A stretch of DNA of 64,000 nt from the NCBI GenBank assembly GCA_963728975.1, contig CAVSMF010000005.1, forward strand, positions 1-64,000. The letters are read 5' to 3'. This document shows positions 8,992-54,980 of the stretch, in pieces. The stretch is from an uncultured Verrucomicrobiae bacterium. Lineage in GTDB: Bacteria; Verrucomicrobiota; Verrucomicrobiia; Chthoniobacterales; UBA10450. The notes below the pieces were generated by a model, which did no database searches, was not told where the DNA came from, and saw only the letters and a program-made list of their open reading frames with translations. A program made the translations under genes and the position numbers. Position 1 is the first letter of the stretch. Each line of letters opens with the position of its first letter.

Positions 8992-9504
8992 ATGCGACCA
9001 TTTACGAAAATTGCTCTGAAGGCGGTTCTGATTGTTGTCGCAGCTTTTGCGGTTCTCGTCGTTGTCGTTCGCTCGCTTTTCATTGTCTCGCCCATGAGGA
9101 CTGATTCTATGGAGCCACTCATCGCGACTACCGATATTGTCGTCGCTACGAAGCTGTTTAGCGCTTCTTCACTTCGCAGCGGAGATTTGGTTGTCGCGGA
9201 CATTCCCGCTCCCAGAGGAGGTCGGGTTCTTACAGTTCGCAAGATTCAGCAACAGCCCGACACTCCGAGTGACAGCTTTTACCTGCAAGCGGCCAACAGC
9301 AATGGCGCTGACTCGCGTCTTTTTGGCCCACTACCAGCGTCAGCCATTCGTGCCAAAGTCATTTGGATTTATCGTAGGAGGCCTAACCAATCGCTGGAGC
9401 TAACCGCCACCCGTCGCGCATTCAGCCTGTTCTCTGTCTTCCGTCCTCTGTCCTCCGATTGTATGCTCGCCCTCGGTGGCGGTAGCTCAGCTTTTTCTCG
9501 TTAG
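8992..9504 (+). CDS. duplicate of the S26/S24-like peptidase cassette ORF (reads through the attC)
   Basis: Nearly identical (2-3 substitutions) to 3525-4022, including the upstream leader after R'. Confidence 0.5.
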   Translation: MRPFTKIALKAVLIVVAAFAVLVVVVRSLFIVSPMRTDSMEPLIATTDIVVATKLFSASSLRSGDLVVADIPAPRGGRVLTVRKIQQQPDTPSDSFYLQAANSNGADSRLFGPLPASAIRAKVIWIYRRRPNQSLELTATRRAFSLFSVFRPLSSDCMLALGGGSSAFSR

Positions 9505-9506
9505 GC
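9381..9506 (+). other. attC site (R'' GCCTAAC 9381-9387; R' GTTAGGC 9500-9506); duplicate of the attC at 3914-4039
   Basis: Identical to the attC at 3914-4039 except for one substitution plus the downstream core base. Confidence 0.65.
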
Positions 9507-9516
9507 GTTCAGAGCG

Positions 9517-9876
9517 TTGCCCGTGATGCAGCCGATTTTAAAAATCCTGATCTCCGCAGTCCTCATCTTCGCGATCTCGGAGCTCGCGAAGCGCAGTTCC
9601 TTCCTCGGCGCACTCGTTGCATCGCTGCCGCTAGTTTCCATTCTCGCTATGATCTGGCTCTGGCGGGACACGCATGATGCGTCGCGTCTTGCCCAGTTCT
9701 CCACGGGCGTGTTTTGGCTCGTACTTCCGTCCCTGGTCCTGTTCGCGTTGCTGCCTCCGTTGCTTACACGCTGGCGGTTCGGCTTTCCGGCAGCATTGGC
9801 CCTTGGTTGTGCGGCCACTGTCGTTGCATACTTTCTCGCCGCCGCCGTGCTCAAGAGGTTCGGCATTCATATATGA
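9517..9876 (+). CDS. cassette ORF, integral membrane protein (4 TM), unknown function
   Basis: TTG/GTG/ATG start cluster 9517-9526. Strongly hydrophobic. Confidence 0.45.
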   Translation: MPVMQPILKILISAVLIFAISELAKRSSFLGALVASLPLVSILAMIWLWRDTHDASRLAQFSTGVFWLVLPSLVLFALLPPLLTRWRFGFPAALALGCAATVVAYFLAAAVLKRFGIHI

Positions 9877-24190: not shown

Positions 24191-24519
24191 ACAAACCTTT
24201 CTAACGAAGTTTTTAACCTCAAACCGATAAGGAATGGCTTTCACCTTTTTTTAAAACCTATTACGCCCGATTCCTCGCTCCGCTCGGAATGACAGCGATG
24301 TGGCACCGCTTCAGTCATCCCGAGCGGAGCGAGGGATCGGGCAGATTCGGGTTGACGGGGCTAACGGGTCACAACGCGCCTTTCTCAAATCGCGAGCCAA
24401 CCCTGAGCGGACATCTCGGAGAGATGTCCCTACCTGTACCTACGCCTAGCTGTACCCATGCCTACCTGTACCCTGGATTCCAAGACATCCGCGCCTGCGA
24501 TCGAGCGCGTAGACTTAGT

Positions 24520-28118: not shown

Positions 28119-28610
28119 TCAATGAGGTAGCGGCGGTTCACCGAACCGCCATCCATCGAGCGCAGTACGGTCCAGCAGATGTGGCCAATCTTCTTCGCTA
28201 CGGACCAATCCGGCCCTGACGGGATTTCCACGGATGTATGCCGCTTTTTCTTCAAGGCTTTCATCATTTCGCAGTCGATGATCGAAAAAATTGCGCTGCC
28301 ATTTGACTCCGGTGAATCGTGATGCGGCTCGTTTGAAATTCTTCACCACGGTTGAGAGTGATACATCTCCACTAATGGAAACGAGCGCGTGCCAGTGATC
28401 GGGCATCAACAGAAACACGACCACGCGCCAGACTTGGCGCCGGTCGTAGATTGCAGCTGTCTCGAAAAGTTTGCGGGCAATGTCGGTGTGACAAAGCTGG
28501 TTATTGTGTCGCTCGATGCAACAGACGGTCAGAAAATATGTGGCCCCAAACCGGCCGTCGAAGTGCGCCCCGTGGTTTAGGGGCTTTCTTGTGAAATGGT
28601 TTCGGGGCAT
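28119..28610 (-). CDS. HUH tyrosine transposase, REP-associated (RAYT / IS200-like Y1 family)
   Basis: HUH motif LMPDHWHALVS; C-terminal FDHRLRNDESLEEKAAYIRGNPVRAGLV with the catalytic Tyr; paralogous to 54206-54679; start codon abuts a 73-bp tandem array. Confidence 0.6.
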   Translation of the reverse strand: MPRNHFTRKPLNHGAHFDGRFGATYFLTVCCIERHNNQLCHTDIARKLFETAAIYDRRQVWRVVVFLLMPDHWHALVSISGDVSLSTVVKNFKRAASRFTGVKWQRNFFDHRLRNDESLEEKAAYIRGNPVRAGLVRSEEDWPHLLDRTALDGWRFGEPPLPH

Positions 28611-29150
28611 CGCTCGTTGATGGCGATTGGGGTCAATCGCCGCTACCTCGGGGGATCATAAGCTTTCGGTAAATTATTTCTCAGCTCGTTGATGGCGATT
28701 GGGGTCAATCGCCGCTACCTCGGGGATCATAAACTTTCGGTAAATTATTTCTCAGCTCGTTGATGGCGATTGGGGTCAATCGCCGCTACCTCGGGGGATC
28801 ATAAGCTTTCGGTAAATTATTTCTCAGCTCGTTGATGGCGATTGGGGTCAATCGCCGCTACCTCGGGGATCATAAGCTTTCGGTAAATTATTTCTCAGCT
28901 CGTTGATGGCGATTGGGGTCAATCGCCGCTACCTCGGGGGATCATAAGCTTTCGGTAAATTATTTCTCAGCTCGTTGGTGGCGATTGGGGTCAATCGCCG
29001 CTACCTCGGGGGATCATAAGCTTTCGGTAAATTATTTCTCAGCTCGTTGATGGCGATTGGGGTCAATCGCCGCTACCTCGGGGGATCATAAGCTTTCGGT
29101 AAATTATTTCTCAGCTCGTTGATGGCGATTGGGGTCAATCGCCGCTACCT
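28611..29150. repeat. tandem array, ~8 copies of a 72-73-bp unit containing the palindrome ggcgattggggtcaatcgcc
   Basis: Units are identical apart from 1-2 nt (gggggatcataagc / ggggatcataaac). There are no unique spacers. Confidence 0.85.
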
Positions 29151-29890
29151 GGGGCGGAGATTTTTACGCCTTCGTTTTCCAGCGCGGAACGCAAGGCGCG
29201 GGCGAATTCCACCGCCTCGGGCGTGTCGCCGTGAATGCAAATTGTTTCCGCCCGAACGTTAACATCGGTTCCGTCAACAGCGCGGACCTTGCCTTCGCGC
29301 AGCATCCGCAAGACCCGCGCGGCTGCTTCTTTAGGATCGTGGAGCAAAGCGTCGGGCCGGGTCCGCGGGACCAGCGAGCCGTTCCCGAGGTAGTTGCGGT
29401 CGGCGAACACTTCCGGCACGATCTTCAGCTTTCGGGGCGCAGCCGCCTGGGCGAGGGCGCTATTGCCGGGAGCGAACAGGAGCAAGGAGGAATCCACCGC
29501 GATCACTCCCCGGACCACGGCATCGGCAAGCTCCCGGTCGCGCACCGCCATATTATATAGAGCACCGTGCGGTTTTACGTGGTTGGGGTGTGCGCCAACC
29601 CCGTCGGCAATGGCCTCGAAAACGCCAACCTGATAGACAATCAGGTCAAAAACCTGTTCCGGAGTCACCGGCAACTCTTTCCGGCCAAAGTTCTCCCGAT
29701 CGTACAGGCTCGGATGCGCGCCAACCGCAACGCCAAAGTGCATTGCTGCCGCAATCGCGTCCCGCATGCTGTTGGCGTCACCGGCGTGAAAACCACAGGC
29801 GATGCTGGCGGAACTAACCAGCCGGAGCAGTTCGGGATCGCTGCCAACGCCCTCGCCAAGATCAGCGTTGAGATCAACGGTGAGATTCAT
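29135..29890 (-). CDS. pxpA: 5-oxoprolinase subunit PxpA (LamB/YcsF family)
   Basis: MNLTVDLNADLGEG...ACGFHAGD is the LamB/YcsF signature. 4-bp overlap with the upstream pxpC. Confidence 0.75.
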   Translation of the reverse strand: MNLTVDLNADLGEGVGSDPELLRLVSSASIACGFHAGDANSMRDAIAAAMHFGVAVGAHPSLYDRENFGRKELPVTPEQVFDLIVYQVGVFEAIADGVGAHPNHVKPHGALYNMAVRDRELADAVVRGVIAVDSSLLLFAPGNSALAQAAAPRKLKIVPEVFADRNYLGNGSLVPRTRPDALLHDPKEAAARVLRMLREGKVRAVDGTDVNVRAETICIHGDTPEAVEFARALRSALENEGVKISAPGSGD

Positions 29891-30905: not shown

Positions 30906-31616
30906 TCAACGTTTCCAGGATTCAAATTGTTCCCGGGAAATGGAGTGGAAGCGCACGTAATCGCCCGGGCAGAGAAGCGCCGGCGGATTTTTCTTTGGGT
31001 TAAACAAGCGCATGGGCGTGCGTCCGATAACATTCCAGCCCCCGGGAGACCGCATCGGATAAATGCCGGTTTGACTGCCGCCGATCCCGACCGATCCGGC
31101 GGGCACTTCTTTTCGCGGAACAGGCCGGCGCGGGGTGGCCAATTCGCGGGGCAAACCGCTGAGGTAAGGAAAACCGGGAGTGAACCCAAGACAACTTACT
31201 CGATATACCGCCTGGGTATGCCGGTCGATCACGGCCTGGGGAGAAAGGCCGACGCATCGCGTCACGTCGTCGAGATCCAGGGCAAACTTGTCGTCGTAAC
31301 AGACCGGAATTTCGATCGGACTGGACGTGACGCGCTTCAGCCGAACCTGGCCATTGGCGATGGTGGTCTGGACTAACCCGCCCATCCACTCATAGATGTT
31401 GTTCGGATCCGCTCCGGCCGTCACCGCCTCGGCCGGATCGTAAAAGATGGCAATGGTGGTGTAGGCCGACGCCACTTCGGTGACGGCCGGCAGATTTGCC
31501 CGCCGCAAAAAATCAAAATAACCGAGGACTTCATCCAGAGTTTCATCCGGGGCGTCCTCGAAGTTCTCCCGGACATGAAGAATGAGCGCGGAATCTCCCA
31601 GCGGCGTAATTTCCAT
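30906..31616 (-). CDS. pxpB: 5-oxoprolinase subunit PxpB (KipI / allophanate hydrolase subunit 1-like)
   Basis: First gene of the pxpBCA-type operon. KipI-like sequence. Confidence 0.7.
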   Translation of the reverse strand: MEITPLGDSALILHVRENFEDAPDETLDEVLGYFDFLRRANLPAVTEVASAYTTIAIFYDPAEAVTAGADPNNIYEWMGGLVQTTIANGQVRLKRVTSSPIEIPVCYDDKFALDLDDVTRCVGLSPQAVIDRHTQAVYRVSCLGFTPGFPYLSGLPRELATPRRPVPRKEVPAGSVGIGGSQTGIYPMRSPGGWNVIGRTPMRLFNPKKNPPALLCPGDYVRFHSISREQFESWKR

Positions 31617-31886
31617 CTGGGACCAAAAATAAACACGTAGCCGGCAAAGATGCTAACCTATTCTGCCGGCAAGGAGGGGCAGCTTCCCCCGGCGGGCGAG
31701 CCTGTTTGCCGAAACATTCTTGCGATAAACTGCAGAAGAGGTTTTTGGCAGAATGCCAAAAACAGCGGGCAACATGCCCGCGCTCCCCGGCAAAAGCGGC
31801 GAGGACGCCGCTTCTACTTTTATTCTTGCGCGCTTTCCGGCTGCGGGAAATTGTAGGGCGTCTGTGTCAGACGCCGATCGCACCAA

Positions 31887-34454
31887 ATGACGTTCGCCGC
31901 GGCGGACGCATGGCATTCTCGATGGCGTTTCACAGAAACGCCCTACAAAAGATTTCACCGAAACGCCTACAAGAGATCAAAAAACATTTTGAGAGCCTGG
32001 AAATTCTTTGCCCTGGCGATCGCCCTTGGAATTGCGCTTTGGTTTCTCTCTCCCAGCCGATCCATCGGGCCTAACGAGCCCGGGGTAGTCGAAATTTCCT
32101 ATCTCGGCGAGGCCGGGGTGGAAGCGGCTGCCATGAACGATGCTTTTCGGATCTTCGAGACGGAAAGCCGGGCCGCCCACAGGCGCGATCCTTCCCATCC
32201 GATCTACCGGATCGTCACCGGGCAAAACGCGTCACGAGATCAAACCTCGGATCCGACCCGCTTCCTGGTCAGCGTCGCCGGAGGCAGGCCGCCGGACCTG
32301 ATCCGGTTCGATCGTTATGCGGTAAGCGAATGGGCCGCCAGAGGCGCCTTCGCCAAGCTCGACGATTTCGTCGCCCGCGACGCCTCGAGCAACGATCCGG
32401 CGGCAATTCATCCGGAAAATTTTTACAAGTCGTGCTGGGAAGAAGTCGTCTACGAAGACCCGGTGACGCGGGAGCGCGGCATTTACGCCGTCCCGGCCGA
32501 CGTCGACGATCGAGCGCTTTTTTACAACAAAGATCTGCTCAAGCGCGGGGGATATGTGGATGCGGCGGGTGAAGCGCAACCGCCGCGCACGTGGGCGGAA
32601 CTCGAGGAGATGGCGGTCAAGCTAACCGAACGCGACGCGCGGGGGCGGATCACCCAACTCGGTTTTGCGCCTAACTTCGGCAATGCCTGGCTCTATCTTT
32701 ACAGCTGGATGAACGACGGCGAATTTCTCAGCGCCGACCGGCGGACCTGCACCCTGGATTCACCGCCGGTGGTGCAGGCGCTCCAGTGGATGACGCGCGT
32801 TTACGATCGGGTCGGCGGAGCGGAAGCGGTTTATGCGTTTCAAGGCGGATCGCAAGCCGGCCAGTTAAGCATCGCCCCGGGGGCGCTCGATCTGTTTGTG
32901 CAGGGAAAGGTGGCGATGAAGATCGACGGCTACTGGTGTTTCCCAGAGAGCCTGGCCCAATTCGGCCGCGATTTAGACTACGCCCTGGCGCCGCCGCCGA
33001 TGCCGGCCTCGGCTCTGGCCCAGGGACGACGGCCGATCAGCTGGGTCAGCGGCTGGTGCTACGCCATTCCTTCCACGGCGCCGCACAAGGAGGGCGCCTG
33101 GCAGTTATTGCGCTTCCTGAGCAGCCGGCGGGCAATCGAGATTATCGGCGACAGCGAACGGACCCGGTTGCAAAGCATTGGGCGAGTCTATGTGCCGAAG
33201 CAAAACTCGAATCGAAAAATCAACGAATGGCTGTTCGACAATTACATCGCCAATAATCCCGCGATTCAGCCAAAGATCCGGGACGGGGCCAGGCTGTTGA
33301 ATCATCTCCTCGATGTTTCTCCGATTCGTCCGGTGACGCCGATTGGGCAGCTTCTCTTCAACGAGCAGAGGCGGGCAACCGAGAACGCCATTTTTCACAA
33401 GATGTCGCCCCGGGCCGCGCTGGCGGAAAGCCAACGGGTCGTGCAGCGCCAGCTCGACCGGGTGTTGAGCCCGCCCCGGGGCCCGATTGTTCCCTGGAAA
33501 TATTTCTTGTGGATCTACGCTGGAATTATCGTCATCGCGGCCGGGGCGATCATCGGGTTCGACCGGCAGAAAACCCGGAGCCGTTATTTTCGTTCGGAGC
33601 GGCGCGGGGGCTGGCTGTGCGCGTCCCCCTGGCTGATCGGGTTCATCGTTTTCACCGGCGGGCCGATTCTTTTTTCCATTATCATCAGCTTTTGCGATTA
33701 CGACATTCTCAATCCGGCGCGTTTCGTCGGGCTGGACAATTACCGGTGGATGTTCACGCGCGACGCTCTCTTTTGGAAATCGATCTGGAACACGGCGTTC
33801 ATGATCATCGGCATCCCCCTGGGGATGGCTCTCAGTCTGGGGATCGCCATCCTGCTCAATGTCGAGATCCGCGGGGTGGCGGTGTGGCGCACATTTTTTT
33901 ATCTGCCTTCCATTGTTCCGGTAGTGGCATCGAGTCTTCTCTGGCTCTGGATTCTCAATCCCAATGTCGGGTTGCTAAATCACGTCCTTGGCTCGGTCGG
34001 CCTTCACGGACCAAACTGGCTCCAGGACGAACATTTAAGCAAACCGGCTCTGATTTTGATGGGGCTCTGGAGCGCCGGGGGCGGAATGATCATCTGGCTG
34101 GCCGGACTCAAGGGGATCAGCCCGGCGTATTACGAGGCGGCCGCTCTCGATGGGGCCAACCTCTGGCAACAATTCCGCCACATTACCTTGCCGCTGCTGT
34201 CGCCTTACATCTTTTTCAATCTCATCATGGGACTGATCGCGACGCTCCAAATATTTACCCAGGCTTTCATTATCACGGAGGGCGGCCCGGTCGATTCCAC
34301 CCTTTTCTACGCCTACCATTTGTTCAACAGCGCCTTTCGTTTTCTCCACATGGGTTACGCCTCGGCTCTTGGCTGGTTCCTTTTCCTGGCCGTTTTCGGA
34401 TTGACCCTGCTCCAGCTCCGTTTCTCCAAACACTGGGTCCACTATGAAGAGTAG
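31887..34454 (+). CDS. fused ABC transporter: family-1 extracellular solute-binding domain followed by a permease domain (carbohydrate-type, EAA motif)
   Basis: N-terminal TM plus SBP-like region (~residues 60-540). C-terminal 6-TM permease with EAAALDGANLWQQFRHITLP. Single continuous ORF. Confidence 0.6.
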   Translation: MTFAAADAWHSRWRFTETPYKRFHRNAYKRSKNILRAWKFFALAIALGIALWFLSPSRSIGPNEPGVVEISYLGEAGVEAAAMNDAFRIFETESRAAHRRDPSHPIYRIVTGQNASRDQTSDPTRFLVSVAGGRPPDLIRFDRYAVSEWAARGAFAKLDDFVARDASSNDPAAIHPENFYKSCWEEVVYEDPVTRERGIYAVPADVDDRALFYNKDLLKRGGYVDAAGEAQPPRTWAELEEMAVKLTERDARGRITQLGFAPNFGNAWLYLYSWMNDGEFLSADRRTCTLDSPPVVQALQWMTRVYDRVGGAEAVYAFQGGSQAGQLSIAPGALDLFVQGKVAMKIDGYWCFPESLAQFGRDLDYALAPPPMPASALAQGRRPISWVSGWCYAIPSTAPHKEGAWQLLRFLSSRRAIEIIGDSERTRLQSIGRVYVPKQNSNRKINEWLFDNYIANNPAIQPKIRDGARLLNHLLDVSPIRPVTPIGQLLFNEQRRATENAIFHKMSPRAALAESQRVVQRQLDRVLSPPRGPIVPWKYFLWIYAGIIVIAAGAIIGFDRQKTRSRYFRSERRGGWLCASPWLIGFIVFTGGPILFSIIISFCDYDILNPARFVGLDNYRWMFTRDALFWKSIWNTAFMIIGIPLGMALSLGIAILLNVEIRGVAVWRTFFYLPSIVPVVASSLLWLWILNPNVGLLNHVLGSVGLHGPNWLQDEHLSKPALILMGLWSAGGGMIIWLAGLKGISPAYYEAAALDGANLWQQFRHITLPLLSPYIFFNLIMGLIATLQIFTQAFIITEGGPVDSTLFYAYHLFNSAFRFLHMGYASALGWFLFLAVFGLTLLQLRFSKHWVHYEE

Positions 34455-34505
34455 AAGGAGATTTGTAATTTGCGATTTGCAATTTGTAATTTGGAGGACC
34501 TACCA

Positions 34506-34928
34506 ATGAACGAGGATGAGCTGGTAGACCGGACCAAGCAGTTCGCCTTGCGGATAATTCAAGTGGTCAGGGCGCTCCCCAAGACGCCCGAGGCGCGGGC
34601 CATCGGCGACCAGATGGTACGAAGCGGGCCTTCTGTACATGCCAATTACCGAGCCGCATGCAAGGCGCGCTCGCGCGCAGAGTTCATCGCGAAACTTGGG
34701 ACCGTTGAGGAAGAAGCAGATGAGACGGCGGGTTGGCTCGATTTGCTTGTCGCCAGTCAGATCCTCCCTGAAAAAAAACTACAGTCGCTTTTACAGGAGG
34801 CGCGGGAACTCACTGCGATTTTTGCCGCATCACGCAAGACCGCGTTGCGCAACGAACAATTGCAAATCGCAAATCGCAAATCGCAAATGCGTCGCCCCTC
34901 AGGCAACAACCGGTCCCGGCAGAAATGA
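34506..34928 (+). CDS. four-helix-bundle protein (23S rRNA intervening-sequence protein family)
   Basis: ELVDRTKQFALRIIQVVRALPKTPEARAIGDQMVRSGPSVHANYRAACKARSRAEFIAKLGTVEEEADETAGWLDLL is characteristic of this family. Flanked by inverted repeats. Confidence 0.6.
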   Translation: MNEDELVDRTKQFALRIIQVVRALPKTPEARAIGDQMVRSGPSVHANYRAACKARSRAEFIAKLGTVEEEADETAGWLDLLVASQILPEKKLQSLLQEARELTAIFAASRKTALRNEQLQIANRKSQMRRPSGNNRSRQK

Positions 34929-36580
34929 GATTCCTGCGAACGATCTCGATCTATTCTCTTCTTCTGCTCGGCTCGATTGTCTTCGCCTGGCCATTTATCT
35001 GGATGGCCGCGACTTCCGCGAAACTGCAGCGGGAATTGTTTAGCGATCATCCGAAGACGATGCCGGAGGCGCCCGACCCGCGAACACGCTCCCCTTACAT
35101 CAACCGTCGTTTGTTTGCCGATGTGAGCGGGCCGCGCATGCAAGAATCGATTGCCTTTATTCAAGCACAGCTGAAAGCCGGGAGTTATTCCCGGCCGGGC
35201 GATAGCGACCGCCAGCTGGCCCAAAAAGAAACGGCCCGCGGGATTTACGCGCATTTGCTGACAATGATTTCGACGGAGACGTGGAAAAAACCTGCCGGCC
35301 AGCTGGAAGCGGACATCGCCAAGAAAATTACTCCGGAATTGGTTTCGGACATTACCGGACAATTGCGCCGTGTCTTTTGCATTCGGCAACTCCAGGTGCG
35401 GTCCTACGATCTCCAGGAAGATCAACTGGTGGGGCCTAACGATGCCGCGGCGGCATGGAAAATCGGCGGATCGGCAGGGGCCCGTCTGGTTCAGGCCGGA
35501 CCGGCGGACCAGCCTTTCGCAGAATTACACTACGATTTTTCCAAAGGGGATTCGGTCACCCTGACCCGGACATTCACGACCAGTTTTCCAGTTTCACGGC
35601 TGCACCGCATTCAATTTTATCTCCGCAACGACGACACCTGGCACGCCATCCGGCTCACCATGGAAAAAGGCGGAAAGCAATTTCGCTCCGATCGCGCTAT
35701 CGACGATGCCGATTCCAACTGGGCGGTGGACACCTGGCAGGAGCCGGGCCCGGACGATCGGATCGATAAGATCCGGACCTGGACATTGTTGCGGGAGGTC
35801 GGCTCCGGCCAGCAATTCGTTAACGGCCCCAATCAGTTAAAGATTACGCTTGAATTGTCGCGCCGCAATCTGGTTGAGGCATGGATCGCCAAGATCCTTC
35901 ACAATTATCGCCTGACGCTGGATTACATTCCATTTTGGAGATATGTCGGGACCAGCCTCTTCCTGGTCATTCTGAATCTGGCCGGCACCTTGATCAGTTG
36001 TTCGCTGGCAGCCTACAGCTTTGCCCGATTGCAATGGCCGGGGCGAACCATCGCTTTCGGCCTCCTCCTGGCCACCATGATGATTCCGCCGCAGGTCACG
36101 ATGATTCCGCAATTTTTGATTTTTCAAAAACTTGGCTGGTACAACACATTGAAACCGCTCTGGGTGACCAGCTTCTTTGCCGCAGCCTTCAGCGTTTTCC
36201 TTCTCCACCAGTTTATCAAAGGCGTGCCACGCGATCTGGAGGACGCCGCCCGACTGGATGGTTGCGGGTTCCTCCGCATTTACTGGCACGTGATCCTCCC
36301 ATTGATCAAACCCGCCCTGGCCGTGATCGCGATTTTCAGTTTCCTGGCCACCTGGAATGAATTCATGAGTCCGCTGATTTATCTGAGCGACCAGCGTCTT
36401 TACCCGCTTTCATTCGGACTTTATGCGTTTCAGATTCAATCGTTGCAACCGGGAACCAGCGCCGAGATCGGCATGGTAATGGCAGGGTCCTTGTTGATGA
36501 CGCTGCCGGTAATCGCGATTTTCTTTTTCGCCCAACGCTATTTCCTGCAAGGCGTGACGTTGACCGGACTCAAAGCGTAG
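34925..36580 (+). CDS. carbohydrate ABC transporter permease with large N-terminal periplasmic domain
   Basis: C-terminal 6-TM permease with DAARLDGCGFLRIYWHVILPLIKP (EAA motif). Confidence 0.7.
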   Translation: MRFLRTISIYSLLLLGSIVFAWPFIWMAATSAKLQRELFSDHPKTMPEAPDPRTRSPYINRRLFADVSGPRMQESIAFIQAQLKAGSYSRPGDSDRQLAQKETARGIYAHLLTMISTETWKKPAGQLEADIAKKITPELVSDITGQLRRVFCIRQLQVRSYDLQEDQLVGPNDAAAAWKIGGSAGARLVQAGPADQPFAELHYDFSKGDSVTLTRTFTTSFPVSRLHRIQFYLRNDDTWHAIRLTMEKGGKQFRSDRAIDDADSNWAVDTWQEPGPDDRIDKIRTWTLLREVGSGQQFVNGPNQLKITLELSRRNLVEAWIAKILHNYRLTLDYIPFWRYVGTSLFLVILNLAGTLISCSLAAYSFARLQWPGRTIAFGLLLATMMIPPQVTMIPQFLIFQKLGWYNTLKPLWVTSFFAAAFSVFLLHQFIKGVPRDLEDAARLDGCGFLRIYWHVILPLIKPALAVIAIFSFLATWNEFMSPLIYLSDQRLYPLSFGLYAFQIQSLQPGTSAEIGMVMAGSLLMTLPVIAIFFFAQRYFLQGVTLTGLKA

Positions 36581-36976
36581 AAAGAAGCGCGCTTATCGCC
36601 GCGAGGCCGTCCGTCGATCGTGGGAAACAAGCCGCGATCCGACAGAAAAAGCCGGTTACAAACCGAACTGGGAGATGTATCAAAAAGGTACCTCGGTAGC
36701 ATCATAACAAGACCAGCCACAATTTGCGACCGAGCAAATGCACTCAATTGAGTGTCGCGTAATATATTGATTATCAACAGATAACAAACAAACGATTCGA
36801 AATCGGAGGCGACTCCGAACAGTTGGCACTTAGCATGATAACTATGAGCCACAATGAATGCATCGACAGAAGAATTTCACCGGAGCAAATCGGCTGGCCG
36901 AATCGCCTCTGGTGGTATCAAATGGCGGTTCGTTCATTCAACACAGACGGAAAACCTAAATTAGAAAGTACAACCA

Positions 36977-37138
36977 ATGCCAAAGGCAAAGAAAAAGTTG
37001 CAGCTTCGCGATCAGAAGCCGGCAAAAGATCCGAAGGGTGGAGGCCATCATGGCACTCGGCGTGGCCACTTGAACACAGCGGGCACCGCCACGAGCGACA
37101 CTCAACGGCGTCATAATCGGCATCACAACCTCCAGTGA
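36977..37138 (+). CDS. candidate small basic His-rich protein (53 aa; coordinates approximate)
   Basis: MPKAKKKLQLRDQKPAKDPKGGGHHGTRRGH...RRHNRHHNLQ, followed immediately by a strong hairpin terminator. Below the ORF-table size threshold. Confidence 0.2.
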   Translation: MPKAKKKLQLRDQKPAKDPKGGGHHGTRRGHLNTAGTATSDTQRRHNRHHNLQ

Positions 37139-38833: not shown

Positions 38834-39032
38834 ACTTTACTGTTAACGCGAATCGGGTTAGACGCATCCCTCCATTTTCAGCGGTGGATCAAGGGGGAGT
38901 GATTGGTCCGCTAAACACGCGAAAGGACGCTAAAGGAAAAGAATTAGTGGGACGACACAAGGTCGTCCCTCCCAATTAATTCCTAATTTGGCGTCTTTTA
39001 GCGTATTTGGCGGACCAATCCGTCCCTCCGGT

Positions 39033-40439: not shown

Positions 40440-40565
40440 ATTATATTAATATAGCCCCAAGTTTGTCATTCCGAGCGCAGCACAGCGGAGTCGAGGAATC
40501 TCGTTGAATCATCGCAGGTACAATACGGGATGTCTCGGCTGCGCTCGACATGACAAAGAAAAAGT

Positions 40566-53706: not shown

Positions 53707-54168
53707 GTAGCCACCGCCCTGTGGGCGGTGCCGAGTGCCGAACAGGAACCGGCCACAGGCCGGTTGCTACATATGGCGGTGTCGGGGGCTGAACAGGAAC
53801 CGGCCACAGCCCGGTTGCTACATGGCGGTGCCGGGGGCTGAACAGAAACCGGCCACAGGCCGGTTGCTACATGGCGGTGCCGGGGGCTGAACAGGAACCG
53901 GCCACAGGCCGGTTGCTACATGGCGGTGTCGGGTGCCGAACAGGAACCGGCCACAGGCCGATTGCTACATGGCGGTGTCGGGTGCCGAACAGGAACCGGC
54001 CACAGGCCGATTGCTACATGGCAGTGTCGGGGGCTGAACAGGAACCGGCCACAGGCCGATTGCTACATGGCGGTGTCGGGGGCTGAACAGGAACCGGCCA
54101 CAGGCCGGTTGCTACATGGCGGTCCGAGTGCCGAACAGGAACCGGCCACAGGCCGGTTGCTACATATG
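53707..54168. repeat. tandem REP array, ~9 copies of a 49-bp unit (ggcggtgtcgggggctgaacaggaaccggccacaggccggttgctacat)
   Basis: Each unit carries the hairpin aaccggcc-aca-ggccggtt. The array begins with the palindrome ccaccgccctgtgggcggtg. Confidence 0.85.
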
Positions 54169-54700: not shown

Positions 54701-54972
54701 CATGTAGCCACCGCCCTGTGGGCGGTGTCGGGGGCTGAACAGGAACCGGCCACAGGCCGGTTGCTACATGGCGGTGCTCGGGGGCTGAACAGAAACCGGC
54801 CACAGGCCGGTTGCTACATGGCGGTGTCGGGGGCTGAACAGGAACCGGCCACAGGCCGGTTGCTACATGGCGGTGTCGGGTGCCGAACAGGAACCGGCCA
54901 CAGGCCGGTTGCTACATGGCAGTGCCGGGGGCTGAACAGGAACCGGCCACAGGCCGGTTGCTACATGGCGGT
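54701..54972. repeat. tandem REP array, ~5 copies of the same 49-bp unit, downstream of the RAYT
   Basis: Same unit and the same leading ccaccgccctgtgggcggtg palindrome as the upstream array. Confidence 0.85.
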
Positions 54973-54980
54973 CTCGGGTG

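Follow-up and report, generated by a model that had tools for sequence, protein, structure and literature searches.

A four-helix-bundle gene enclosed by inverted heptamer arrays in a verrucomicrobial ABC transporter operon probably represents an element of the 23S rRNA intervening-sequence type

Between two genes of an ATP-binding cassette (ABC) transporter operon of an uncultured Verrucomicrobiae bacterium (Chthoniobacterales; GenBank assembly GCA_963728975.1), a small gene of the four-helix-bundle (4HB) family is enclosed by two tandem heptamer arrays in inverted orientation. The DNA analysed, here called the window, comprises positions 1 to 64,000 of contig CAVSMF010000005.1. The 4HB family was first noted within intervening sequences (IVSs) of 23S rRNA, and we consider it probable that the gene and its arrays constitute an IVS-type hairpin element within the operon mRNA, in which the open reading frame (ORF) of an S23p/Avd-like 4HB protein occupies a loop closed by a stem of roughly 31 bp. 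What sets it apart from the known IVSs is its location in a protein-coding operon instead of rRNA. This reading is carried by the anatomy of the element, the conservation and co-variation of its arms throughout the family, empty sites and a remnant in orthologous operons, vertical inheritance, selection, and an orientation shared with the upstream gene.

The ORF matches Pfam PF05635 (23S_rRNA_IVP; E=5e-18, 65.6 bits versus a cutoff of 33.8) and TIGR02436 ("four helix bundle protein"; E=3e-24, 85.4 bits versus a cutoff of 24), in agreement with an earlier sequence-only reading that had assigned it to the 23S rRNA IVS family. That reading had also wedged the gene between a fused solute-binding protein (SBP)-permease gene and a second permease gene with a 4-bp overlap, and these coordinates hold (Table 1). 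The stop codon of the fusion gene lies 6 nt ahead of the 5' arm, and at the other end the stop of the 4HB ORF overlaps the permease start as ATGA. In between, a stem surrounds a loop that carries the ribosome-binding site and the ORF. The 3' arm is the reverse complement of the 5' arm and encodes ..QLQIANRKSQM; the upstream motif and its counterpart in the 3' end of the gene, both pointed out in the sequence-only reading, are thus real. The 31-nt arms are inverted, 87% complementary and 366 nt apart.

The repeats are more than a simple-sequence coincidence, since the motif is enriched in the arms only and the arms pair in RNA folds. The heptamer dimer motif CAAATYRCAAATYR, with one mismatch allowed, has 6 matches in the window versus 0.54 expected; all 6 fall in the two arms, and none of 100 shuffles reached this number. 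In both the minimum free energy and the centroid fold the arms pair and enclose the ORF, and folds of either strand agree. A search for further copies, suggested for the genome along with the sequence-only reading and made here in the window, returned no second 4HB gene and no second site of the motif. Three other heptamer arrays listed by Tandem Repeats Finder (TRF) in the window (3960, 9427, 17946) are unrelated to the element, the first two lying inside a duplicated segment. No Rfam family reached its gathering score anywhere in the window, and no rRNA was found there; no promoter-like site was detected in 31500-37000, where terminator-like sites occur at chance level.

Table 1. Features of the element and its host operon in the window, and hairpins without an ORF in the same spacer of orthologous operons
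Feature	Position or loci	Strand	Basis
Upstream operon gene: fused solute-binding protein and ABC permease, 855 aa	31887..34454	+	ORF list; Pfam SBP_bac_1, SBP_bac_8, BPD_transp_1
Whole element, first base of 5' arm to last base of 3' arm, 428 nt	34461..34888	+	inverted repeat; RNA folds
5' arm: non-coding tandem heptamer array, ATTTGYR, period 7, 4.7 copies	34461..34493	+	TRF, inverted repeat, motif enrichment
Shine-Dalgarno-like GGAGG, in the loop beside the 5' arm, 8 nt ahead of ATG	34493..34497	+	read from sequence
4HB gene, 140 aa from ATG, PF05635/TIGR02436	34506..34928	+	profile matches
3' arm: tandem heptamer array CAAATCG, period 7, 4.4 copies, within the ORF	34858..34888	+	TRF, inverted repeat
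Bridge: ORF runs on beyond the 3' arm, basic tail RRPSGNNRSRQK, to the stop overlapping the next start	34889..34928	+	sequence
Downstream operon gene: ABC permease with large extracytoplasmic insert, 551 aa	34925..36580	+	ORF list; Pfam BPD_transp_1
YCCAACG hairpin without ORF	L002, L004, L006		
AATGACG hairpin without ORF	L008, L010		
GGTGTCA hairpin without ORF	L033, L037		

The inverted arrays recur throughout the family. In a sample of 80 metagenome loci with relatives of 51-69% identity, they bracket almost every ORF. The heptamer varies by locus (AAATCGC, AATCGGC, AAATCTG, AACCATC, CCTTCTG and others), and both arms change together. For the 73 unique loci, the median best inverted-repeat score was 19 between the flanks of the same locus, 8 between flanks from different loci and 7 in shuffled sequence, with 85%, 14% and 0%, respectively, scoring at least 15 (own versus cross-locus flanks, Mann-Whitney p=2e-31). 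On the strength of these shuffle and cross-locus controls, we rejected a simple-sequence coincidence. The bracket that the sequence-only reading took as the sign of a mobile element is therefore a conserved family feature (85% of 73 loci); that its halves are heptamer arrays had gone unremarked there.

Family arms comprise a median of 4.6 heptamers, and the element spans a median of 441 nt (interquartile range 427-464; 428 nt in the window). The 5' arm ends a median of 17 nt ahead of the start codon, in the window right at the GGAGG, and the 3' arm lies within the ORF in some homologs and downstream of the stop in others. AATC occurs in 44 of 62 3' arms and GATT in none of them; the polarity of the arms is fixed, with a conserved tetramer and three variable bases. 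Across 917 kb of loci, inverted heptamer pairs form two size classes, 53 with loops of 300-500 nt that hold a 4HB ORF and 16 with loops of 5-170 nt and no ORF. The same build surrounds annotated 4HB genes carried by Gloeocapsa, Planktothrix, Nostoc, Chlorohelix (Chloroflexota) and Treponema plasmids and, in weaker form, a 4HB gene of Bernardetia (Bacteroidota), so that the phyla with inverted heptamer arrays at 4HB genes include Cyanobacteria, Chloroflexota and Spirochaetota and, less clearly, Bacteroidota. A 50-kb stretch of Nostoc punctiforme pNPUN01 contains eight heptamer arrays, and six of them lie beside its two 4HB genes. The inverted heptamer-array stem is a conserved, co-varying hallmark of free-standing 4HB family members in several phyla. 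A full-text literature search, which is no proof of novelty, returned neither inverted heptamer arrays as a general feature of non-rRNA members nor a link to the short tandemly repeated repetitive (STRR) sequences of cyanobacteria; within the literature searched, a single study, on Coxiella, ties heptamers, inverted repeats and S23p together (PMC4990558).

Relatives of the window genes were found in Chthoniobacterales and other Verrucomicrobiota. We fetched 64 loci with relatives of the downstream permease, one genome per species, and could place both transporter genes in 44. None of these 44 orthologous operons from species-representative genomes has an intact 4HB gene in the interval that the pair encloses. 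Fourteen are clean empty sites, with a spacer from -10 (overlap) to about +27 nt, an example being the TAA-G-ATG junction of locus L003, and one (L050) retains at the same position a 5'-truncated remnant, namely the last third of a 4HB gene with a CAAATYG array. The comparison of orthologous ABC operons for an empty site, proposed along with the sequence-only reading, thus came out in its favor. In many orthologs, the same spacer holds hairpins of about 90-200 nt that lack an ORF and have inverted arrays of other heptamers (Table 1), which the sequence-only reading had likewise not remarked upon; the remaining orthologous loci with an element in the spacer have further heptamers or unrelated inverted-repeat elements. 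CGTTGRR and CGTCATT, heptamers of ORF-less hairpins at this ABC site, did not recur elsewhere among 152 loci compared, save for a solitary array in L122. Another kind of element, about 160-194 nt long and with long terminal inverted repeats (GGGTAGCGCACGCGTCTCGCGTGCTGG ... CCAGCACGCGAGACGCGTGCGCTACCC), occupies the spacer in L007, L013, L021 (about 3761-3956) and L014, and yet another inverted-repeat element, of 90 nt, occurs at the orthologous spacer in L009 and L043. The spacer of the ABC operon appears to be a place that repeatedly gains or keeps structured elements. No direct repeat indicative of a target-site duplication was seen beside the arms when filled, ORF-less and empty sites were compared, although these sites have diverged too far for a short duplication to persist. 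Ten nucleotides after the 3' arm of the window element (34886-34895; ATGCGTCGCC, encoding M-R-R within the tail of the 4HB protein) recur unchanged as the opening 10 nt of the permease gene at the empty-site ortholog L015 (about 4001-4010; ATGCGTCGCC, MRRLLIY..), where the likeness ends; either coincidence or a trace of the original gene start may lie behind this identity.

These data make it very improbable that the gene encodes an ordinary accessory subunit of the ABC transporter and that its repeats are a by-product of replication slippage, that is, a simple-sequence coincidence. A subunit would fit with a gene that is probably co-transcribed and translationally coupled and is conserved at the site within its clade, and slippage with the known variation of heptamer arrays in copy number, as in the differing repeat numbers among Coxiella strains (PMC4990558). 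However, the gene is absent from 44 orthologous operons and its product is a cytosolic, Avd-like protein unlinked to transport, on which grounds we rejected the subunit; and slippage has to face inverted, co-varying arms in 85% of family members, in unrelated contexts, versus 0% of shuffles.

In other metagenome contigs (L146-L152), this very operon site encodes the closest protein homologs (66-84% identity); five metagenome relatives have the 4HB gene at precisely the site found in the window. These copies carry both heptamer arrays as in the window, and three of the four other distinct orthologous copies (L146, L149 and L150, but not L148) keep the ATGA overlap with the permease gene. Between orthologous copies, nonsynonymous divergence (dN) is 0.08-0.24, whereas synonymous divergence (dS) is saturated or above 2, with a ratio of about 0.09 where computable; the low dN against saturated dS indicates purifying selection on the 4HB protein. 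The non-coding 5' arm is still a heptamer array in these copies despite the saturation of synonymous sites. As the array persists while synonymous sites are randomised, the arm is either constrained or continually renewed. In a bootstrapped neighbour-joining tree of the two transporter proteins, the 4HB-bearing loci fall into a clade A (100% bootstrap) together with two loci with ORF-less CCAACG hairpins and two empty loci, and the remnant locus L050 is sister to an empty locus in a clade B (100% bootstrap). Correspondingly, pairwise 4HB identities group the copies as the host-gene tree does. The simplest reading is a single old insertion, vertical descent, and several losses or replacements.

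Homologs of 66-84% identity at the same site, low dN with saturated dS and the retained ATGA argue for long vertical inheritance, and the element appears to be an old, vertically inherited resident, repeatedly lost, rather than a recent hop, and an integrated part of the transcript. No evidence of recent mobility emerged: proteins found on several contigs (P0058 on six, P0045 on four) always had the same genomic context, and no identical 4HB protein was found in two different contexts among the fetched loci. The proposal of a mobile-type insertion that is no operon member therefore stands in part. An intact gene is missing from all 44 orthologs, 14 sites are empty and the family occurs in unrelated operons, but the insertion is old, vertically inherited and integrated in the transcript.

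The genes of the family are typically wedged between operon genes, in many unrelated operons. Examples are a 4HB gene that separates the gene of a DUF1156 protein from that of a Swt1-family HEPN protein (an arrangement shared by two phyla), one between those for DISARM DrmD and an MmeI-type enzyme, and one between a histidine kinase and a response regulator gene. The first two arrangements belong to defence-type operons, with elements in L153 (Gloeocapsa pGLO7428.03), L155 (Chlorohelix plasmid) and L154 (Planktothrix p1). Locus L167 (2501-5106) has three diverged elements (24-51% identity), one in each of three successive gaps of a single MacB-type ABC efflux operon; two run in the direction of the operon and one is antisense, and each has its own heptamer (GATTTGC, GAGTTAT, GATTTTG). 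Overall, 58 of 66 loci have the 4HB ORF on the same strand as the gene upstream of it (p=2e-10), and 44 of 60 have it on the same strand as the gene downstream. This bias, together with the lack of a promoter-like site near the gene in the window, fits expression from the host transcript.

The family is large, with at least 7986 matches at E<=1e-3 among 8000 candidates scored. The AlphaFold model of the 4HB protein (monomer) has helices over residues 3-115 and a low-confidence tail (residues 116-140), for which the 3' arm and the bridge towards the permease gene code. The predicted protein is an up-down-up-down four-helix bundle of about 110 residues with an Avd-like fold, the latter reached via fold comparison only; a profile search of the PDB with the 4HB protein did not reach Avd by sequence. 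It is predicted to be cytosolic and has no link to transport. A solved relative (2RLD) has five chains per entry, a Xanthomonas homolog is reported to be a pentamer (PMC4990558), and by analogy the 4HB protein is probably a pentamer as well. Many homologs share the C-terminal theme ..SQIANRKSQI.., and mis-called N-terminal extensions read ..CDLQF.. or ..LQFxIxNLQF... The ..QIANRKSQI.. C-termini and the ..CDLQF.. extensions are translated repeat arms and no protein features. Since the stop codon comes after the 3' arm in some loci and before it in others, the encoded C-terminal tail is a by-product. One Chthoniobacterales homolog (P0010, 197 aa) has a partial internal duplication, with second helices 3-4 followed by a second ..SQIANRKSQIP tail, which is consistent with recombination or slippage between heptamer arrays.

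Apart from PF05635/TIGR02436, no domain was found in the ORF, in particular no nuclease (LAGLIDADG, HNH, GIY-YIG or similar), recombinase or transposase domain, and the defence-system and phage protein libraries PADLOC and PHROGs gave no match. A homing endonuclease gene was rejected for want of a nuclease domain, and the homing element envisaged in the sequence-only reading finds no backing in a target-site duplication, in a second copy within the window or in an identical copy elsewhere. The accompanying suspicion of a selfish family agrees with an inserted, selfish-type element, but less so with an old resident that is under selection and bears no sign of homing. The protein resembles Avd, the accessory variability determinant of diversity-generating retroelements (DGRs), in its predicted fold, but no template/variable repeat pair accompanies it. 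A DGR component was rejected as well, since none of 18 genes called within the surrounding 20 kb belongs to a reverse transcriptase family, and the neighbours are transporter genes.

The closest known counterparts are the ORF-bearing 23S rRNA IVSs of Coxiella burnetii, Leptospira, Brucella and Haemophilus, which encode S23p, a protein of the same PF05635 family. The Coxiella IVS in helix 45 is 428 nt long and has tandem heptamers (GACAGAT) just upstream of the S23p ORF, the number of which varies between strains; the inverted repeats at its ends make up a 28-bp stem that is cut internally by RNase III in vitro, with the ends mapped by rapid amplification of cDNA ends (PMC4990558). The element of the window has the same length, likewise places tandem heptamers directly upstream of its ORF, and shares with the 23S rRNA IVSs terminal inverted repeats that make a stem of about 28-31 bp around an ORF on the sense strand of the host transcript. 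It differs in that its host is the mRNA of a protein-coding operon and not helix 25 or 45 of 23S rRNA, and in that its ORF extends onto the start of the next gene. Furthermore, the ORF of the window has a good Shine-Dalgarno sequence in the loop and is under purifying selection, whereas that of Coxiella is apparently untranslated and decaying.

Based on this likeness, we propose that the element inserted long ago into a very short spacer between two ABC transporter genes in a lineage of Chthoniobacterales (Verrucomicrobiota) and was subsequently inherited vertically, with loss in several sublineages. Having no recognisable promoter of its own, it would be transcribed within the operon mRNA, where the two heptamer arrays would pair to form a long double-stranded stem of about 31 bp, ample for RNase III. 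By analogy with the 23S rRNA elements, RNase III would cut this stem and free the loop RNA with its ribosome-binding site and ORF. The cut would split the upstream and downstream host transcript where this is harmless, and because it separates parts of the transcript, such elements may be tolerated only at the tips of rRNA helices and between cistrons. The lengthening of the ORF past the 3' arm to the permease start may allow translating ribosomes to melt the stem and to hand over to the permease.

Several points weigh against this proposal. Mismatches between the arms of 62 loci are of the G:U type in 38 cases and of the A:C type in 49 (p=0.28), and without a sense-strand G:U excess the sequence cannot place selection for pairing at the sense RNA as opposed to DNA or copying; pairing could also be upheld in the DNA or through copying from one arm to the other. 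The fold as a whole is not stabler than shuffles (z=-1.07), which is expected because only about 31 of 471 nt carry the signal. The RNase III cut is known from 23S rRNA but for no family member in an mRNA, and a cut between the cistrons might be expected to impair production of the downstream permease, yet the element has persisted. Finally, the Coxiella ORF appears to be decaying and untranslated, whereas the one studied here is under purifying selection, which points to a role of the protein outside the RNA-processing model.

Alternatively, the element might be a cis-regulatory device, in which the 4HB protein would form a ring that attaches to the heptamers of its own mRNA, with each subunit taking one repeat, and thereby regulate its own translation and, via stem and ATGA, the expression ratio of the transporter genes. 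TRAP and HutP bind spaced triplets in a comparable manner. The position of the 5' arm shortly ahead of the start codon (median 17 nt, and at the GGAGG in the window), the roughly 4.6 repeats per arm, the conserved ATGA overlap and the purifying selection on both the ORF and the non-coding arm would all suit such a device, as would the presence of a structured element at this spacer in many orthologous operons, which recalls the repetitive extragenic palindromic (REP) elements between malE and malF in E. coli. However, 14 orthologous operons work without any element, so that the operon has no need of one, and the same family resides in operons of unrelated function. In addition, heptamer binding is not known for any family member, and the device leaves the need for a complementary 3' array unexplained. 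We therefore regard it as quite unlikely.

A mobile element acting at the DNA level, in the manner of REP-associated tyrosine transposases (RAYTs) and the REP-derived hairpins (REPINs) they spread, is unlikely as well. Here, the 4HB protein, probably as a pentamer, would act in trans on its own element, recognise the arrays at both ends, perhaps in the form of DNA hairpins, and spread the ORF-bearing element together with ORF-less mini-hairpins of the same heptamers. The number of about 4.6 repeats at the ends compares with the five chains per entry in a relative (2RLD), the heptamers follow the protein lineage, and the polarity is fixed (AATC in 44 of 62 3' arms, GATT in none). The two loop classes, 53 with an ORF and 16 without, recall autonomous elements and miniature inverted-repeat transposable elements (MITEs), hairpins of different heptamers occur at the same operon site in different lineages, and the arms show no sense-strand G:U bias. 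Yet the protein has no nuclease, recombinase or transposase domain, no target-site duplication is seen at the site in the window, and neither gene nor motif has a second copy in the 64 kb. No identical protein occurs in two different contexts, the copy in the window has been immobile over a long divergence, and a purely DNA-level mechanism does not predict the strong co-orientation with the upstream gene; the conservation of AATC could moreover stem from common descent of the 62 sampled loci.

RAYTs with their REPINs and REP sequences (including bacterial interspersed mosaic elements) share with the 4HB elements a gene between inverted short repeats and ORF-less hairpins in operon spacers, and classic REP sites lie between the binding-protein and permease genes of ABC operons (malE-malF, hisJ-hisQ). 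The 4HB protein is, however, no Y1 (HUH) transposase, and in the arms of its element tandem heptamer arrays stand in place of a single palindromic REP. MITEs and other small palindromic elements are alike in being small, intergenic, bounded by terminal inverted repeats and patchy at orthologous sites, with short forms lacking an ORF. They differ from the element described here in that for the latter no transposase partner is known and no target-site duplication was seen, and in that its arms are internally repetitive and variable, not conserved terminal inverted repeats. The STRR sequences of cyanobacteria are tandem heptanucleotide arrays in intergenic DNA, and STRR-like arrays on Nostoc, Planktothrix and Gloeocapsa plasmids stand in inverted orientation around 4HB genes. 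In contrast to the verrucomicrobial host studied here, STRRs are cyanobacterial and are tied to no gene in the literature searched, and the heptamers found here presumably differ from the three classical STRR consensus units. STRR arrays have been reported to lengthen a helix of RNase P RNA in heterocystous cyanobacteria, which, if true, would parallel the insertion of IVSs into rRNA helices.

As a tentative extension, heptamer-bracketed 4HB genes, ORF-less hairpins, ORF-bearing 23S rRNA IVSs and at least part of the STRRs may belong to one pan-bacterial class of selfish hairpin elements, in which the Avd-like pentamer would specifically recognise its own arrays of roughly five units and drive the persistence or spread of the element. 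The protein might do so by way of the stem-loop RNA released by RNase III, perhaps together with a host reverse transcriptase in the way of Avd in DGRs, or it might target DNA hairpins in the way that RAYTs target REPINs.

The window contains further repeats. A Y1_Tnp gene (IS200/RAYT-like, Pfam; about 28188-28679, minus strand, region 28124-29154) adjoins a tandem array of a 72-nt unit (7.6 copies, 98% identical) with a palindrome GGCGATTGGGGTCAATCGCC in each unit, and a partly complementary copy lies across the gene at 28124-28161; this locus resembles a RAYT accompanied by REP-like repeats of its own and has no relation to the heptamer element. Two tandem arrays at 53724-54165 and 54721-54978 (9.0 and 5.2 copies, 93% matches) share one 49-nt unit, GGCGGTGTCGGGGGCTGAACAGGAACCGGCCACAGGCCGGTTGCTACAT, with an internal hairpin CCGGCCACAGGCCGG; they are no CRISPR, because whole units are conserved. 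A direct duplication of about 120 nt or more at 3900-4050 and 9367-9517, 5467 nt apart and with diverging flanks, includes a CTGTCCT-type heptamer run and GGTGGCGGTAGCT. Other intergenic hairpins, with non-heptamer arms of 20-40 nt, lie at 24254-24353, 38895-39026, 40462-40557 and 31851-31948, the last just upstream of the transporter operon.

For annotation, these findings mean that conserved-looking C-terminal motifs and odd N-terminal extensions of 4HB proteins are translated repeat arms. The origin and function of rRNA IVSs and of the very large 4HB family have been in question since the early 1990s. Three results make this question testable, namely the co-varying heptamer stem as a hallmark, the purifying selection on the ORF, and the ORF-less hairpins at the same sites. 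Together, they provide a defined candidate ligand for the protein (RNA or DNA, about five heptamers) and point to one particular processing step, the cutting of an mRNA by RNase III, and they suggest a possible link between IVSs, the Avd proteins of diversity-generating retroelements and the heptamer repeats of cyanobacteria.

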